Assembly: GCA_020353515.1 (NCBI GenBank)
Contig: CP070695.1
Span: 948,127-1,012,126 of the forward strand
Source: Candidatus Heimdallarchaeota archaeon
GTDB lineage: Archaea > Asgardarchaeota > Heimdallarchaeia > Hodarchaeales > Hodarchaeaceae
Reading direction: 5' to 3'
Length of the DNA stretch: 64,000 nt
Part shown: one piece after another, positions 51,341 through 62,119 of the stretch
Layout: each line of letters opens with the position of its first letter
Numbering within the stretch: the stretch's first letter is position 1
The notes under the pieces: model-generated
Databases searched by the model: none
Told to the model about the DNA's origin: nothing
The model's input: the letters and a program-made list of their open reading frames with translations, nothing else
Translations under genes and position numbers: made by a program

Positions 51341-51730
51341 TTGCTCGAAGACACAAGGAATGAACTGAGAACAATTTTAGAAAATGTCTTCCAACAAAAC
51401 TCACAGATCCAATTGATCTCCTTAATAACTCCTGAAGGACTTCCAATTTTAACATTTAACCGTGACACAGAGGAAGGAGTCTCCGAGCTTACAGATTCAG
51501 GTATTTTAAATAGATATGCTGCTCTTGCAGGAGCAAGTGCCTCCCTTGGGGACAGAACTCTCTCAACTTTTTCACCAGAAAAAGTTCGCTTAATACACGT
51601 ACAAGGGAATACCAGAGATATCGCAATCGCAATTTCACCTCATTTGATATCTTTAGTAGTAACGGATCCCTCTGGAAGTCCAAATCTTATTGCAGAAAAG
51701 TTAAATACTGAACTAAAAGCGAAATTATAA
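51341..51730 (+). CDS. roadblock/LC7 domain protein
   Basis: LITPEGLPI, AALAGASASLGDR, IHVQG, LVVT. Confidence 0.88.
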   Translation: MLEDTRNELRTILENVFQQNSQIQLISLITPEGLPILTFNRDTEEGVSELTDSGILNRYAALAGASASLGDRTLSTFSPEKVRLIHVQGNTRDIAIAISPHLISLVVTDPSGSPNLIAEKLNTELKAKL

Positions 51731-51750
51731 TCAATGGACATGAATTATTA

Positions 51751-53712
51751 ATGGATTCTCTTCAATGGTTTGAGATAACTAAAGAGGCTCTGACTCTGGC
51801 GGAATCTGATCTTGATGTTTCTCAACTTGATTCAATAGTCTTAATTCAGCTAGATCCAGAAATTCAAACATTTTCGACTACTGAACCACAAATAGATATC
51901 AAAACCTCAACTCTACTTGGACAAACATGGCATTACATCGTCGATCTTTTAACAGACGAGTTACTGATAGAATCTTGGAACTCTCTTTCCATCAAAAGTC
52001 GCAATAAAGCAATTTCAATCCATTCACTTGGACACAATGTAGTACTTGTAGTCATATCTGATGCTGCAATTGATACAATAGATATCATCAAGGTAATTCT
52101 GAAGTATATTTTTCAAATAGGTTATCAAGACAAGTATGAAACTGTTGGGCTTGTGTCAACAGATGGTTTCCCAGTCTGGGTTACTTCGATCGAAGAAATA
52201 GATGATTTTCTCTTCGCAATTTCTATTACATCACTTCTCTCCCTTGTTGAACGAATAGATATGGAAGTTTCTGCTGGTGGAGTAGGTGCTTGTATCCTTC
52301 AAGGAACCGAAAATTTGCTTCTGAATGTCGCGTTTAATCCCTCCCAGGACTTGGTACTAGCAGTGACTCAAAAGGGGTCAAATATTGAGGATGTTGCTCT
52401 TGACTTAGAATTAAGTTCTCTCTATCAAAAGACTGCTGATCCTGTATTATTCAGTGCGATAGTTCCTGAAATCACTGATGAAGATCGAGAACGAATGTTG
52501 GAAGAAATCCGTCAAGCATTTGAAGGTGAAACAACAGAAGAAGAAATCCAAACCCTAAATGTGTTTGATACTGAAATGCTTAGTTCTCTCGAAAATGAAA
52601 TCAAGACAGTTGCGAAAAAATATGGTGCTAAAGAAATCTCTATTGGCTATTTACGTAAACGGATGAAATTACCTGCAGAGGTCCTTTCCATGGCACTACA
52701 GTATCTTATTGGAGAGGGAACGATAGAAGGACGAATTGGAACAGAAAGAAAAACTGGAAGTGAGATCTTGGTAGTTGATATTGTTTCAGAAAGAAGTGAA
52801 CAAGATCAAAAAACATTAGATTTAGTCAAAGATCAAATTAGTGAGATCTTCAATCCTATAAACACTCATCTTTCTCAACTCCCAGAAGCCCATCTACCTG
52901 AAACAGCGGTTCAAGAAGAATTAATCACTGAAACACTAGGCGAATTCCAGATTATGCTAACTTTATCAGATACAGATCCTTTATTTTTGTTAACAAATGA
53001 TTTACGGATTGCAGGAACACAAATAGAAGGTTCAGTTAAATCACTGGTTCTTACCAAAAAACAGCTTTCAGAAACAGAACCAGATGATGTTCTTCGAGCC
53101 GAGCTCGAACGACGAGTAACAAATTTGGATGAGAAAATATCTGAACAAAAATTAACGATCATAGGTAAAGCTAAAAGATTTTATGAAGATCTCCTCAATT
53201 CTTATCGTCTTATATTCAGATTACTTCCCCCACCAAACAAGTTCAGAAGATCAAGGGGGAAAAAAATTGCAAACATCATCTTTACGTGCCCTGGTCACAA
53301 CTGCGAAAAATATGTTCGAATTCGGGATAACATATCGACATGGGTAAAATTATATGTTTTTGCGAATCTGTTGGGAATTCAAAAGGATGATTTTTCTGTG
53401 AAATTTCCACCTAATATCGTTAAGTTAAGATCTTCCATCGAAGATCGTCTTAATAGGCTTTCTTCTTTGATAAGTGATTCAGAAATGACTATTAACTTGG
53501 AATTAGCAGATTATTTATTTATTGAAAACTTAGATGATCTTTTAATAACCAATACTCAGAGAGATAAGGCTATTAATATACTTAAACGAGTAAAGATTGA
53601 ACAAAACCTTGAAGAAAAGGATTTTTACTCACTTTTTACTCAATGTAATTCATGTAACAAATGGTATTGCACAGAACATATGTCTACAACAAATAAATGC
53701 CAAAATTGTTAA
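51751..53712 (+). CDS. multidomain protein: tandem roadblock, PCI-like winged helix, coiled coil, split zinc finger
   Basis: VSTDGFPV...SLLSLVER (roadblock); EISIGYL..LIGEGTIEGRI (PCI-like); CPGHNC...CNSC-x4-CTEH-x6-CQNC. Confidence 0.7.
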   Translation: MDSLQWFEITKEALTLAESDLDVSQLDSIVLIQLDPEIQTFSTTEPQIDIKTSTLLGQTWHYIVDLLTDELLIESWNSLSIKSRNKAISIHSLGHNVVLVVISDAAIDTIDIIKVILKYIFQIGYQDKYETVGLVSTDGFPVWVTSIEEIDDFLFAISITSLLSLVERIDMEVSAGGVGACILQGTENLLLNVAFNPSQDLVLAVTQKGSNIEDVALDLELSSLYQKTADPVLFSAIVPEITDEDRERMLEEIRQAFEGETTEEEIQTLNVFDTEMLSSLENEIKTVAKKYGAKEISIGYLRKRMKLPAEVLSMALQYLIGEGTIEGRIGTERKTGSEILVVDIVSERSEQDQKTLDLVKDQISEIFNPINTHLSQLPEAHLPETAVQEELITETLGEFQIMLTLSDTDPLFLLTNDLRIAGTQIEGSVKSLVLTKKQLSETEPDDVLRAELERRVTNLDEKISEQKLTIIGKAKRFYEDLLNSYRLIFRLLPPPNKFRRSRGKKIANIIFTCPGHNCEKYVRIRDNISTWVKLYVFANLLGIQKDDFSVKFPPNIVKLRSSIEDRLNRLSSLISDSEMTINLELADYLFIENLDDLLITNTQRDKAINILKRVKIEQNLEEKDFYSLFTQCNSCNKWYCTEHMSTTNKCQNC

Positions 53713-53735: not shown

Positions 53736-54524
53736 ATGAAATTAGTGGTAGGTATAGACATAGGTTCGTTAACGGCGAAGATTATAGTATTATCGGTTTC
53801 AGAACAAAAAGACGATAATTTTAATCAGAAGTATTCTTTTATAAGACGTGTAGGATACAATCCAGCAGCAGTGGCTAATGATTTAATAAGTAAAGCAATG
53901 AATGCTTTAAAAGTAAACAATTTTGATTATACTATTTCTACTGGGTATGGTAGAAAATTAGCTAGAACCAATGAAAATATTACAGAGATTACCTGTCATG
54001 CCAAAGGTGCTTTCTCTATTAATTCTAAGATTCGAACTATAGTTGATATTGGAGGGCAGGATTCGAAGGTTATACAAATCAACAACAGTGGACAAGTCCA
54101 AGATTTTGAAATGAATGATAAATGTAGCGCGGGAACTGGTCGTTTTTTGGAAGTTATGGCTAACGCCCTTGAGGTTGAAATATCGGAATTTGGTAATCAA
54201 GCTCTTATCTCAACGGATCCCGCATCTATCTCAAGTATCTGCACTGTTTTTGCTGAATCCGAGGTTATTTCTAGAATAAATCAAGGAACCAACAGATTGG
54301 ATATCATTGCTGGCATACATAGAACTATTGCTATAAAAATTGCAGCTCTAGCTGCTCGAGTTGGGATAAATCCTATGGTAGCTTTAACAGGTGGGGTTGC
54401 TCTAAACCCAGGAGTGAAGAAAATGCTTGAAGATCAATTGAATGTTGTAATTGAGGTTCCAGAGCATCCACAAATGGTAGGTGCACTAGGAGCTGCATTA
54501 ATAGCTGCTGAACGCCTCCAATGA
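53736..54524 (+). CDS. 2-hydroxyacyl-CoA dehydratase activase (HgdC/BadF-type ASKHA ATPase)
   Basis: GIDIGS, TGYGR, EITCH, DIGGQDSK, MNDKCSAGTG, CTVFAESE, GGVA.N. Confidence 0.92.
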   Translation: MKLVVGIDIGSLTAKIIVLSVSEQKDDNFNQKYSFIRRVGYNPAAVANDLISKAMNALKVNNFDYTISTGYGRKLARTNENITEITCHAKGAFSINSKIRTIVDIGGQDSKVIQINNSGQVQDFEMNDKCSAGTGRFLEVMANALEVEISEFGNQALISTDPASISSICTVFAESEVISRINQGTNRLDIIAGIHRTIAIKIAALAARVGINPMVALTGGVALNPGVKKMLEDQLNVVIEVPEHPQMVGALGAALIAAERLQ

Positions 54525-54540
54525 TCTAGAGGAAATAAGA

Positions 54541-55515
54541 ATGGCTAGCATCTTCAAAAATTTGACTATATCGGATGTTAAAGAGACTTTTTCTCAGATT
54601 CGACCCTATGTGATTTCAACACCACTGATACGATCTTATCAGTTAGAACAAATAATCGATAAAGAAATATACCTGAAACTAGAATATCTACAACCCACAC
54701 GATCTTTTAAAATCCGAGGAGCTTGTGCTAAAGCTTTATCATTAGAAAAAGAGGTCTTATCTCAGGGTTTAGTGACTGCATCTGGTGGTAACCATGGTTT
54801 GGGTGTCTGTTATGCAGGAAAAGAACTTAATGCACCTGTTGTAGTATTTCTTCCCAAAAGCACAGCCAAAGAGAAAGTTGAAAAAATCAGGAAATGGGGA
54901 GGAAAAACCGTCCTATACGGAGAGGCATGGGATGAAGCTAATAGTAAAGCTCAAGAATATGCACGAGGGAAAGAGCAAACCTATGTTCATCCCTTCGATG
55001 ACCTTACAGTTGTTAGAGGCCAAGGAACTATCGCATTAGAACTTCTGGATCAGAATCCATATTTGGATGCTATCATTGCATCTGTAGGAGGAGGAGGATT
55101 GATTAGTGGGTTGGGAGTGGTAGCAAGTCAGATGAAACCCGAAATAAAAATATTTGGTGTAGAAACGATCGGTTGTGATGCCGTAACACAGAGTTTTAGG
55201 GTCGGCTATCCTGTTACATTGTCCGCAATAACTAGTATTGCAGACACACTTGGGGCGAAAAAAACCACTGAGGCCACTTTAGCCAGAATAAAAGCAGTTG
55301 TCAACGATATGCAGACTGTTACAGATAAAGAAGCATTAGATGCGTTAAAATTGCTGCTAGATAAAGAAAAGATTCTTGTAGAACCTGCTACTTCGTGTTC
55401 TATCGCAGCATTATTACTAAACAAGTTTAATTTATCAGAAGTCAAGAAAATAGGGATTATTTTATGTGGTGCAAATGTTTCTCTAAGACAATTAAAGGAA
55501 TGGAAAGTTATTTAG
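54541..55515 (+). CDS. PLP threonine/serine dehydratase family
   Basis: SFKIRGA, SGGNHG, HPFD, GQGT, VGGGGL, CGAN; no ACT domain. Confidence 0.9.
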   Translation: MASIFKNLTISDVKETFSQIRPYVISTPLIRSYQLEQIIDKEIYLKLEYLQPTRSFKIRGACAKALSLEKEVLSQGLVTASGGNHGLGVCYAGKELNAPVVVFLPKSTAKEKVEKIRKWGGKTVLYGEAWDEANSKAQEYARGKEQTYVHPFDDLTVVRGQGTIALELLDQNPYLDAIIASVGGGGLISGLGVVASQMKPEIKIFGVETIGCDAVTQSFRVGYPVTLSAITSIADTLGAKKTTEATLARIKAVVNDMQTVTDKEALDALKLLLDKEKILVEPATSCSIAALLLNKFNLSEVKKIGIILCGANVSLRQLKEWKVI

Positions 55516-56230: not shown

Positions 56231-58591
56231 CTATCTAAGTGATAGTTGTAATGCTAGATTCTCTTGGGTAAAACGTCCAAATGCAACTAAATCCGCTTGA
56301 CCTTGTTTTATTGCTTGTTCTGCAGAGTCAATATCAAAATCACCACTGCAAACAATCGGGATATGAGGAAGATCATCTTTTACTTTTTGAATAAACCGTT
56401 CTATACCTACTTCCTCATCTTTTACCTCGCTATATAAGTAATCAATGCAGAGTAATTCGATTCCCGCTCTTTCGATGTATTTAACAACTGTGGAAAGCTC
56501 ATCATCAGGTAAACCGCGAAAAGGAGCTGAGATGTAATATGCAAGCATGATTTCTTGTGGAAGAGTAGCACGAATCGCTTTAGCAACCTCTAGAGGGAAT
56601 TGGATTCGATTTATGAATGATCCACCATATTCATCAGTTCGTTTGTTGTATTCTGGTGATATGAATTGACCAAGTAAGTCTGGTTTTTCTTGTATCATAC
56701 TTGAAGATATTTCAACTATATCAAAACCAGCACGAGCAGCACGAATTGCAGCTTCAGCAAACTCATTTCGAATTTGTGAAATCTGTCCCAACGTCAAGGA
56801 ACGAGGTGGATCACGATCAGATATAGGAATTGCAGAAGGCGCAAGTGGCTGCACACCACATATTGCCTTCTTCGTTGCTCCTCCTGCATGAGTTAAACGA
56901 ATTCCGATCAAAGACCCATTTTTATGAACCTGCTCAACAACCTGTGCTAAACGAGATATGACATAATCATCATGAATTCCAATTTGATGAGGATGACTTT
57001 TCCCTTGGAGAGAGATGTAAGCTGGCTCTATATAGACTAATCCAGCACCATCTTGAGCAGCTTTTCTATAGTAAGATATCGCTTCGTAAGAAATCTGCCC
57101 ATTCACAATTTCTCCAGTTTTAATTCCACTAATCGAAGAAGAAGGCATTACTACACGATTACGAGCTTTCAATCTCCCTAACTGATAAGTACGAGTTAAG
57201 ATCGATTCTTTAGGTACACGATTTCTAATAAAAAGTATCAATAAAGTTGCAATGGTATAAAGAGTGGCAGTGAACATAAATACATATAGGAAACCATAAT
57301 TATCTACTATAAAACCCCCTATTGAAGCAGAAACAGACCAAAACATTCCCCAAGCCAAAGTTTCTAGAGAATTCCATTTGGCACGGGAAGCAGAGGGAAC
57401 TATATCCATAACAATCGATCGACTCACAGGCCCAGCTGCATTCATTAATGCATTACGACTAATATAAAAAAATACAAGAAAAAGAACTGATAAGGAATAC
57501 GTTATGGTATGATTCAGGTAAAGTACAAGATTAATCATTAATCCAACCAAGCAGATAATTGCGAGTCCTTGAGTGAAAAACATCGATCCAATACGACCAA
57601 GAATTCGAATCATTCGCTGAGCAAGCAAACCTGCTAAACCTGTAACAATACTTGTAATACACATAATAGTATAAGTAAAAAAAGGGGGTAGACCGTAACC
57701 TATTTCTGAACTCGCAAAGAGAATAGGGAAAAAGGCTACTGTCGCTCCAGCTCCAAAACCAATTATAATTCCACTAATAACGATTACACTAGGGGTAATT
57801 ACCTCATAAAAAAACGGTATTCCAAAGATTGTCACAACAGGAGTCCCCCTTACTACTTCAACTCCTTCTTTTGGGAGGGTGGTTGAAGTGGGGGAATCTT
57901 GAATTCTTGTCACGAGAGCTTTATTGTCAGAAGCAAAAACAATTGCTAAGTATGCAAATAATGAAGTAAAAGCTGCCATAAGGATAAGATTTTGAAGTAA
58001 TTTGAGATCCCAAGTGTCACCAAGAAATAGTGTGGATCCAGCTGCTATAGCAGGACCTATAGCGGATGCGACGAGATTAGCAAAGAACATCTTTGCAAAC
58101 ACTTGACTCCGTCGTCCTGGTTCTATAGAGTCTGCAATTAATGCTTGTCCTGCTGGACCAGATAATCCCCACCCTATTCCTCCAAGTATCTCACTAACAA
58201 TAAGTGCTGTCAGAGCTGTTTGGGGATTCCCTACCAAAGTTGTGGCATAGATAAGTGTCACTTGTGCTAGAACACCAAAAATCACAGAAATTCGTATTAA
58301 AAGATCCCTTCGGTATCTATCTGCGAAAATCCCAGACGGTATAACGAAAATAGTGGAAGCAATTCCTTGTATTGTGAAAAGATTACCGAGAATTATATTA
58401 GTTTGTCCTAATCCATTAGGGGTATTATTTGTAACGAAAATTGAAAATGCTACCTGAATGATACCCATTCCAAGAGCAAAACTTATTGTTTGGATATAAG
58501 CCAGCCTAACATTCCAATTCATTTTTCTTTTCACTTTTTTTTCCGAACATTCAATCATAAGGATAAGTATATTACTTCGATAGATTTTCAT
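56231..58591 (-). CDS. MFS transporter fused to a degenerate NADH:flavin oxidoreductase (OYE) domain
   Basis: MFS motif GIFADRYRRD and about 12 TM to aa ~455; then NRVVMP, HAG, AGFD.VEI, QFISP..NKRTDEYGGS..NR, AFGR; start may be ATG 58522. Confidence 0.88.
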   Translation of the reverse strand: MKIYRSNILILMIECSEKKVKRKMNWNVRLAYIQTISFALGMGIIQVAFSIFVTNNTPNGLGQTNIILGNLFTIQGIASTIFVIPSGIFADRYRRDLLIRISVIFGVLAQVTLIYATTLVGNPQTALTALIVSEILGGIGWGLSGPAGQALIADSIEPGRRSQVFAKMFFANLVASAIGPAIAAGSTLFLGDTWDLKLLQNLILMAAFTSLFAYLAIVFASDNKALVTRIQDSPTSTTLPKEGVEVVRGTPVVTIFGIPFFYEVITPSVIVISGIIIGFGAGATVAFFPILFASSEIGYGLPPFFTYTIMCITSIVTGLAGLLAQRMIRILGRIGSMFFTQGLAIICLVGLMINLVLYLNHTITYSLSVLFLVFFYISRNALMNAAGPVSRSIVMDIVPSASRAKWNSLETLAWGMFWSVSASIGGFIVDNYGFLYVFMFTATLYTIATLLILFIRNRVPKESILTRTYQLGRLKARNRVVMPSSSISGIKTGEIVNGQISYEAISYYRKAAQDGAGLVYIEPAYISLQGKSHPHQIGIHDDYVISRLAQVVEQVHKNGSLIGIRLTHAGGATKKAICGVQPLAPSAIPISDRDPPRSLTLGQISQIRNEFAEAAIRAARAGFDIVEISSSMIQEKPDLLGQFISPEYNKRTDEYGGSFINRIQFPLEVAKAIRATLPQEIMLAYYISAPFRGLPDDELSTVVKYIERAGIELLCIDYLYSEVKDEEVGIERFIQKVKDDLPHIPIVCSGDFDIDSAEQAIKQGQADLVAFGRFTQENLALQLSLR

Positions 58592-61402: not shown

Positions 61403-62119
61403 TTATTTAATTAGAATAGAAAGGATCGATATGAAGAAAAAAACAGAATAGAGCAATAATTTAAGAATGAAAATGTTATCTTCGCTTGATTCCTGCTTAC
61501 TTTGCAATCTTGTTCTCACCTTGGATTTCCTTCTTAATTTCAGACTTTTTTCAGAAAATCCTCTCCTTTCTTTCATTTTCTGTCTTTGGAGCTTCATGGG
61601 AGATAATAAGGCATCCTTGTTATGACCTATGAGAGTATTATTCCGTTTGGTAACCTTTCGTTTCCAAACAATTCGAACTCCACAAACAGGACAAATTGTA
61701 GAGCTTTTTACAGGGCTAATTACGCGGACAGTAGCACAACGCGGACAGTGGATCATGAAAGATTTTCTTTTCTTTATCTTGACTCTAGTTTTTTTATTCA
61801 ATTTAGATATAGGGTTTGTTTCTAATGATAAGAGTGAAGATTCCTTTATTTTGTTTATGATATGATTTTGAATATTATGTAGTTCACCATTACACATTGG
61901 ACACTTATTTTTTATTCTCAACCATGAAGTGAGATGTCTAATATGGAATACAGAGGCACAACTAGGGCACAAAAAACAACTTTCTTCAACCCACACTCCT
62001 CTCCTACAAATGCAGCATATACCTATTTCGCATGAGTTGGTCCAATTGGTATTTAACTGAATTGTTCCTCCAATTACCAACACTAATGCTACTATGGTCA
62101 GGATTTGAAAGAATAACAA
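61403..62119 (-). CDS. RING-finger protein with zinc ribbon, basic region and C-terminal TM
   Basis: CCIC-x12-CPSC-x4-H-x2-H-x3-W-x6-CPMC; CPRC..CPVC; hydrophobic C-tail. Confidence 0.8.
   Translation of the reverse strand: MLFFQILTIVALVLVIGGTIQLNTNWTNSCEIGICCICRRGVWVEESCFLCPSCASVFHIRHLTSWLRIKNKCPMCNGELHNIQNHIINKIKESSLLSLETNPISKLNKKTRVKIKKRKSFMIHCPRCATVRVISPVKSSTICPVCGVRIVWKRKVTKRNNTLIGHNKDALLSPMKLQRQKMKERRGFSEKSLKLRRKSKVRTRLQSKQESSEDNIFILKLLLYSVFFFISILSILIK

Follow-up and report, generated by a model that had tools for sequence, protein, structure and literature searches.

We analyzed a pair of adjacent genes in a 64,000-nucleotide (nt) stretch of the genome of Candidatus Heimdallarchaeota archaeon (GenBank assembly GCA_020353515.1, contig CP070695.1, forward-strand positions 948,127 to 1,012,126), a member of the Hodarchaeales whose genome is a single contig of 4.94 Mb. 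Throughout, the window denotes this whole stretch, and positions are counted from its first letter. The pair comprises a small roadblock gene and a gene encoding a 653-amino-acid (aa) protein, in which two roadblock domains are joined to a winged helix, a helical stalk and a Cys/His-rich tail that best matches a domain of the animal adaptor VEPH1/Melted. A first-pass annotation made from the sequence had placed a 129-aa roadblock open reading frame (ORF) 20 nt before the 653-aa ORF, and the coordinates and this gap were confirmed. The genes and the domains of the large protein were delimited as follows:

51341..51730, + strand: small roadblock gene, 129 aa; TTG start after GAGGTG; helix 2 nearly invariant
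51751..53712, + strand: large gene encoding the 653-aa multidomain protein (whole ORF), of a Hodarchaeales-restricted family
51751..52077, + strand: roadblock 1, aa 1-109; divergent; fold completed by helix 110-124; column conservation 0.48
52078..52443, + strand: roadblock 2, aa 110-231; canonical, MglB/LAMTOR2-like; helix 2 at aa 152-172
52444..52566, + strand: acidic helical linker, aa 232-272; conserved; net charge about -10; low model confidence
52567..52791, + strand: PCI/DDRGK-type winged helix, aa 273-347, without the PCI helical-repeat bundle
52798..53223, + strand: helical stalk, aa 350-491; ends in an antiparallel hairpin; last helix continues into the tail domain
53224..53709, + strand: predicted VEPH1/Melted-type zinc domain, aa 492-653, from the model, an ESM Atlas structural match and profile matches

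Queried as a single sequence, the 653-aa protein yielded one Pfam match only, a chance hit to Sec23_trunk, and an ESM feature search returned no match at or above 0.9. Its AlphaFold2 model, built from 62 sequences, scored a predicted local distance difference test (pLDDT) of 80 and a predicted template modeling score (pTM) of 0.46, so that the domains are confident and their packing is uncertain; it contains no transmembrane helix. Homologues of both proteins were mostly labeled Hodarchaeales or Hodarchaeota and carried adjacent locus tags, and those of the large protein numbered 61 at 37 to 84% identity plus 9 distant ones at 27 to 36%. Our survey of 301 Asgard genomes detected the large-protein family in 18 of the 20 genomes of the same genus (3 of these as fragments) and in one of two genomes from another family of Hodarchaeales; it was absent from the other 278, which gave single-roadblock matches and one tail match only. 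In 17 other loci for which flanking DNA exists, the small gene immediately precedes the large one; it does so in five distant lineages as well, where its products match the small-protein profile at E values of 1.8e-45 to 3.7e-8. The pair stays together in every informative locus. As a separate observation, the large gene carries an internal TGA in one locus (L018, genome G175) and in another (L019, genome G244) all that is left of it is a C-terminal fragment next to an unrelated gene, whether by assembly error or by decay.

By its profile matches, the 129-aa protein is a roadblock. Queried alone, it has no Pfam match; Robl_LC7 was matched by 44 of its 72 homologues (best E value, 1e-4), and the family profile matched Odin RBLC7 in the PDB (E value, 4e-4) and a Pfam-positive roadblock of the source genome (E value, 3.7e-8), scoring about as well against dynein roadblocks as against those of Asgard archaea. 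Both N-terminal domains of the 653-aa protein have the roadblock fold (helix-strand-strand-helix-three strands-helix): aa 5-121 aligned with the roadblock 7yh1 at a Z score of 11.3 and a root mean square deviation (rmsd) of 3.2 over 111 positions, aa 111-231 aligned with 9jue (Z, 11.5; rmsd, 2.8; 116 aligned), and the Z scores of roadblock 2 against 9jue, LAMTOR2 and MglB ranged from 11.5 to 11.8. The first-pass annotation had assigned roadblocks to aa ~1-124 and ~125-227; both folds were borne out, but the boundary was misplaced, because helix 110-124 aligns by profile with helix 1 of the small protein and is thus helix 1 of the second roadblock. This is the single helix between the two sheets, it is used by both structural alignments, and the tandem therefore has five helices instead of the six expected of two complete roadblocks. 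Roadblocks 1 and 2 would presumably pack together via this helix, leaving both dimer edges free. The conservation of helix 2 in roadblock 2 was 0.85, the highest of the segments measured, compared with 0.52 in roadblock 1. In searches of the source genome, the roadblock-2 profile found the Pfam-positive roadblocks (E value, 7e-7), and the best other match of the roadblock-1 profile fell in the C-terminal part of a GTPase of 302 aa (C1:1525251-1526159; E value, 5.8e-5), a weak sequence lead toward a possible Rag-like client. Models, fold matches and loci together support three roadblock units in an architecture whose two genes always occur together.

The protein had also been described as ending in a Cys/His finger. 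The finger is present but constitutes only half of an eight-ligand site, the other part of which includes C513 and C518, within a 160-residue domain that had been missed. When aa 468-653 were modeled alone, the pLDDT rose to 88 and the pTM to 0.85, and the eight conserved Cys and His residues are each kept in 63 to 67 of 66 to 68 aligned rows. They are predicted to bind zinc at two interleaved sites, site 1 consisting of C513, C518, C640 and H643 and site 2 of C632, C635, C650 and C653. Structural comparison of the tail with the PDB (Foldseek, VIA) revealed no fold match (best Z, 4.4), which is not proof of a new fold, and PDB sequence searches with the whole-protein and tail profiles gave no significant match. 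The best structural match in the ESM Atlas was a chordate VEPH1 cluster, with a template modeling (TM) score of 0.55 and an rmsd of 3.5 over 127 aligned positions (next match, 0.36); the Atlas's own model of the tail had the same top match (TM, 0.42), which stems from the same library and is not independent. The tail is thus best matched as a putative distant copy of the unnamed Cys-rich domain of VEPH1/Melted, a tie that rests on the Atlas match and on the architecture. A likeness that we had presumed, to the Cys/His domain that follows COR in certain Roco GTPases of bacteria, was not confirmed, as the 11 Roco tails compared carried other domains and did not match; this does not refute the idea.

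The profile of the 653-aa family also matched the C terminus of a HEAT-repeat protein encoded in the source genome (E value, 2.9e-4), and TPR proteins from a further Asgard group carry the same domain at the C terminus:

L031:7397-9061 (G000 C1:3219396-3221060): HEAT-repeat protein, 554 aa, a PH-less relative of the VEPH1/Melted layout
L071:5174-7039, L072:4534-6408 and L073:104-1627: TPR-repeat proteins, plus one non-TPR protein, ending in the tail domain with both zinc sites

In profile-profile comparison, the tail and the HEAT family were joined at a probability of 96.5% (E value, 8.4e-10; 127 columns), whereas the reversed control reached 0.6%, the highest value among 30 block-shuffled controls was 6%, and no other segment of the protein exceeded 1.3%. 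The tail profile matched the HEAT and eukaryotic sets at 96.5 to 96.9%. The TPR proteins bridge the families, at 96.3% to the tail and 99.3% to the HEAT family, and keep the second zinc site with the spacing of the roadblock-linked tail. The HEAT-type members, in which this second site is wholly absent, and most of the eukaryotic ones retain equivalents of C513, C518, C640 and H643 only; for this reason, we defined these four residues as site 1 and the rest as site 2.

The HEAT family is patchy in Hod-, Kari- and Thorarchaeota and also occurs in a Myxococcales genome, a Planctomycetota genome and protists. One metagenome ORF (L123:21-2339), probably eukaryotic, combines helical repeats, a coiled coil, the tail domain and a PH domain above the Pfam cut-off, which is the VEPH1 layout; it matched the Asgard HEAT protein at an E value of 3e-64, and a tail-only hidden Markov model covered its whole domain at 3e-6. 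Further members (L124, L125, L128 to L130 and P0195 to P0198) are probably eukaryotic as well. All relatives are non-enzymatic scaffolds in which HEAT or TPR repeats and a coiled coil precede the domain, and in all of them, as in the 653-aa protein, the last helix of the stalk runs into it. Several eukaryotic members add a membrane-targeting unit after the domain (a PH domain in L123; ankyrin plus FYVE in P0198), and the Cys-Cys tail of the P0195-P0197/L124 group and the CaaX-like end of L130 may be lipid anchors. In L129 and L130, most of the ligand cysteines are lost. The domain is a mobile module: archaea have it in three architectures (HEAT, TPR and roadblock-winged helix), and it also occurs in a few bacteria and in protists. 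The roadblock-linked tails form a separate long branch in the tree, at about 20% identity, and the tail is therefore a distant paralogous domain and not an orthologue. The HEAT-Melted protein was considered as an obligate partner of the roadblock protein and rejected, being present in 3 of the 20 genus genomes (two of these as fragments), compared with 18 of 20.

Between the roadblocks and the tail, a PCI winged helix had been proposed at aa ~280-343. A winged helix was found there (aa 273-347) with PCI proteins among its best matches: CSN2, TREX-2, a proteasome subunit and DDRGK1/UFL1 gave Z scores of 8.8 to 9.4, those of 9.2 to 9.4 at rmsd values of 1.4 to 2.4. The Pfam PCI score, however, remained under the cut-off (12.6 bits versus 22; PCI was matched in 15 of 53 family members, with a best E value of 0.0066), and the structural matches tied with SarS, JetA and MarR-type domains (Z, 8.5 to 9.4 for the MarR/SarS type). 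The PCI/DDRGK matches had the higher identity (mostly 20 to 24% versus 6 to 12%) and the lower rmsd. In the model, both roadblock segments form roadblocks, and the third forms a winged helix that is PCI-like but lacks the helical-repeat bundle of PCI proteins: the model contains none before it, and two short helices lie in the low-confidence acidic linker, after the roadblock. We regard aa 273-347 as a probable PCI-like winged helix and not as a PCI subunit. Its nearest Asgard relatives are the winged helices of very large proteins (L152 to L163, 1080 to 2320 aa), in one of which, L152, the sequence suggests a longin-like segment following the winged helix. The stretch at aa ~415-485 that had been called heptad-rich does form two long helices (aa 409-491), arranged as a hairpin, but its heptad periodicity was weak in a crude check. 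Elsewhere in the source genome, a 420-aa protein (L114; G000 C1:620130-621392) contains two PCI-type winged-helix repeats (Pfam PCI, 30 bits, above the cut-off), each followed by a RING/B-box-like finger, and its finger ends resemble the finger that closes the 653-aa protein (hhalign, 52%).

The first-pass annotation had linked the winged helix to a protein-turnover-type scaffold. That the protein is a true PCI subunit oligomerizing into an assembly like the proteasome lid, CSN or eIF3 on a Ragulator-like platform is, in our view, highly improbable, even though CSN2 superimposes closely (Z, 9.2; rmsd, 1.4; 23% identity) and was the sole winged-helix match among the PDB sequence matches (E value, 1.4). 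What is shared with PCI proteins (CSN2, the proteasome lid, TREX-2) and with DDRGK1/UFL1 is a winged helix of ~70 residues, which here is internal and has neither PCI nor MPN genes nearby; the protein-turnover scaffold is not supported, since the PCI helical half is missing. Moreover, only two Pfam PCI matches occur in the source genome, both distant from the pair and in other architectures, and isolated PCI-like winged helices are already known as add-ons of Asgard longin/adaptin proteins (PMC10936438).

The ties with MarR/SarS-type domains raise another explanation, a sensor-type transcription regulator in which the roadblocks would act as sensors of a ligand or partner, and DNA binding by the winged helix would control the downstream genes for a BadF/HgdC-type ATPase and a PALP enzyme. 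Archaeal roadblock-helix-turn-helix fusions exist (an Atlas match), R302 and R304 of the winged helix are invariant, and a BadF/HgdC-type ATPase gene lies 3′ of the pair in 16 genus loci and in L062, usually followed by a PALP enzyme gene. Yet the domain is near neutral, aa 309-322, the would-be recognition helix, contain no basic residue, the PCI/DDRGK matches are the closer ones, the distant loci lack the BadF neighbor, and the relatives of the tail are signaling scaffolds. We read the BadF/PALP neighborhood as synteny and consider this explanation quite unlikely. A scan for sigma-70 promoters and terminators gave results at chance level, and sigma-70 patterns are not suited to archaea.

The finger might also be a cross-brace like that of AN1, B-box or RING proteins and make the 653-aa protein an adaptor between a GTPase platform and either ubiquitin-type tagging or p97/proteasome. 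The ligand order of the tail fits AN1, in which eight interleaved ligands lie within ~45 residues, zf-AN1 was weakly matched by 28 of 62 members (best E value, 0.013), and the winged helix resembles those of DDRGK1/UFL1 and CSN2. In the tail, however, the finger is split by a helical insert of 113 residues and belongs to a larger domain, the HEAT-type and eukaryotic members of that domain lack the second site, and none of the loci inspected contains a ubiquitin-system gene, which leaves a role of this kind very unlikely.

By analogy, the pair would work most like the roadblock platforms of the MglB and Ragulator type. It belongs neither to Ragulator nor to the PCI proteins nor to the VEPH1 family, with which it has one domain in common. 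MglB, the roadblock GTPase-activating protein (GAP) and guanine nucleotide exchange factor (GEF) of MglA in Myxococcus and Thermus (6hjm, 6h5b and 3t12), and the stand-alone Asgard roadblocks (9jue, 7yh1 and 7f8m; PMC10933270) share with it the roadblock fold (Z, 10.9 to 11.8) and a conserved helix-2 surface. In contrast to them, it probably forms a heterodimer instead of a homodimer, two of its domains are fused and share a helix, and ~420 residues are added; unlike with MglB, a cognate small GTPase is not in the operon, a convergent Rab-like gene occurring in three distant loci only. Ragulator (LAMTOR1-5) and EGO likewise hold several roadblocks per assembly, and LAMTOR2 is among the best fold matches (Z, 11.7). 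LAMTOR4/5 lack helix 3 (PMC5680233), and in the 653-aa protein one domain lacks a helix of its own, which the same chain supplies. Ragulator has four roadblocks as two heterodimers, to which the roadblock tails of Rag bind; three are encoded here, and a 2:1 complex would give four. On the other hand, the three domains lie on two chains, are confined to Hodarchaeales and show no sequence-level orthology to Ragulator. No gene for a lipid-anchored wrap-around subunit of the LAMTOR1/Ego1 type is conserved beside the pair in the loci inspected, an unlinked gene being possible. The Ragulator-like platform proposed at the outset thus holds as a fold analogy only: the locus has no LAMTOR1-like subunit, membrane anchor or Rag GTPase, and the protein as a whole lacks a eukaryotic orthologue.

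VEPH1/Melted is an animal adaptor with an ARM fold and a PH domain that acts on TOR/TSC1, FoxO, Hippo and TGF-beta; it is described as single-copy, lacking paralogues and without similar sequences in animals older than pseudocoelomates (PMC6734325). It and its Asgard HEAT relative likewise place the unnamed Cys-rich domain after a coiled coil, with four shared ligand positions, whereas the 653-aa protein has roadblocks and a winged helix in place of ARM/HEAT repeats, ends at C653 without a C-terminal PH domain and possesses the second predicted zinc site.

The reading that we prefer, and to which we give an about even chance, is that the pair forms a soluble roadblock-heterodimer adaptor for a Rab-like GTPase with a Melted-type interaction head, the client, the zinc binding and the role of the tail being predicted. 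The two genes would encode a single signaling adaptor, in which the small roadblock would pair with roadblock 2 through the conserved second helices and create a two-helix GTPase-binding surface. Such a surface is suggested by the structures of MglB, TRAPP and Ragulator, and the two-helix side of roadblock or longin dimers binds small GTPases in solved complexes (PMC5680233, PMC10933270). The complex would then regulate or hold a Rab-like GTPase as a GAP, GEF or scaffold. Roadblock 1, seated on roadblock 2 via the shared helix, would provide a second, faster-evolving docking edge, to which a Rag-like GTPase might dock by its roadblock tail or a further copy of the small protein might bind, and the winged helix and stalk would carry the zinc domain as a partner-binding head. 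We favor an adaptor for a GTPase because the pair is conserved, helix 2 of roadblock 2 is the most conserved segment measured, that of the small protein is nearly invariant, the folds are those of MglB and LAMTOR2, a Rab-like GTPase is the neighbor in three distant loci, 64 Ras-family matches occur in the source genome, the tail relatives are all scaffolds and the model has no transmembrane helix.

Several points weigh against this reading. Neither in the source genome, where the nearest GTPase gene is ~28 kb upstream, nor in the genus loci does the pair have a GTPase gene as its neighbor. In the three distant loci, the Rab-like gene lies on the opposite strand, with 11 to 36 nt between its end and the stop codon of the large gene; these neighbors are convergent to the pair, 68 to 82% identical and of one clade, and may therefore reflect plain synteny in one lineage, and no one-to-one orthologue of them was resolved among the GTPases of the source genome. 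To our knowledge, the Melted-type domain has no assigned function, even in animals. Roadblocks, moreover, are common in prokaryotes and have uses beyond GTPase control (PMC12962969). The lack of a GTPase in the genus loci is also what an assembly hub independent of GTPases would predict, in which the roadblock dimer would organize partners as dynein LC7 or p14/MP1 does, with the Melted-type head and the winged helix as the real output. The good match of the small-protein profile to dynein roadblocks is in keeping with such a hub, as is roadblock 1, which, like RBLC7-type domains, has no helix of its own. The highest conservation nevertheless falls on the helix-2 surface, as for a ligand surface, and Rab-like neighbors do occur in a distant clade, and we hold the hub to be rather unlikely. 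A complex prediction for a distant-clade trio (the roadblock part of P0151, its small roadblock and the neighboring Rab-like GTPase with GTP) scored 0.01 and bears neither way.

On its own, the roadblock part is an ordinary Asgard shuffle of the lineage-specific kind, and the novelty comes mainly from the Melted-type tail. Asgard archaea typically reshuffle such domains within restricted lineages; their lineage-specific multidomain proteins recombine eukaryote-type domains, and among these proteins longin or roadblock domains with helix-turn-helix or PCI add-ons are a described theme (bioRxiv 10.1101/2020.10.19.343400; PMC10936438); roadblocks alone are a weak signature of eukaryotes (PMC12962969). 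Neither the domain combination nor VEPH1 together with Asgard or archaea was found in the searchable literature, including the supplements of two Asgard surveys, in agreement with the earlier statement that the architecture was undescribed. The domain before PH in VEPH1/Melted has neither a Pfam family nor a solved fold, and the tail gives it an archaeal relative joined to a Ragulator-like fold. This compact archaeal version of 160 to 190 residues, with its confident model, is a practical target for a first structure of the domain and for a partner screen, and its fusion to roadblocks suggests the idea that the Melted-type domain works with regulators of small GTPases. On the most far-reaching reading, one Hodarchaeales complex would join a Ragulator-like platform to the core domain of Melted/VEPH1, an adaptor that acts on TSC1/TOR in animals. 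The Hodarchaeales are one of the Asgard groups proposed to be closest to eukaryotes. We see only a slim chance that the pair is an archaeal trace or parallel of a nutrient and GTPase signaling scaffold predating TOR, in which the Melted-type zinc domain would be a hitherto unrecognized interaction module of GTPase pathways.

The surroundings of the pair provided some further observations. Divergently upstream of the pair in a distant locus (L068:1-4979) are a tubulin/FtsZ-family gene and a gene for a 1389-aa protein without a Pfam match. In the window, genes for a BadF/BcrA-type ATPase and a PALP (threonine dehydratase-like) enzyme (53736-55515) start 23 nt downstream of the pair and share this synteny across the genus; beside the ATPase, the window has no gene for a dehydratase partner subunit. 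On the negative strand, 56231-58591 encodes an in-frame fusion of an MFS transporter with a barrel resembling Old Yellow Enzyme (Pfam MFS_1 and Oxidored_FMN), and 61403-62119 encodes a RING-finger-like protein (zf-RING_2; E value, 4e-4) that also contains a second zinc ribbon and a basic stretch and whose C terminus is hydrophobic.

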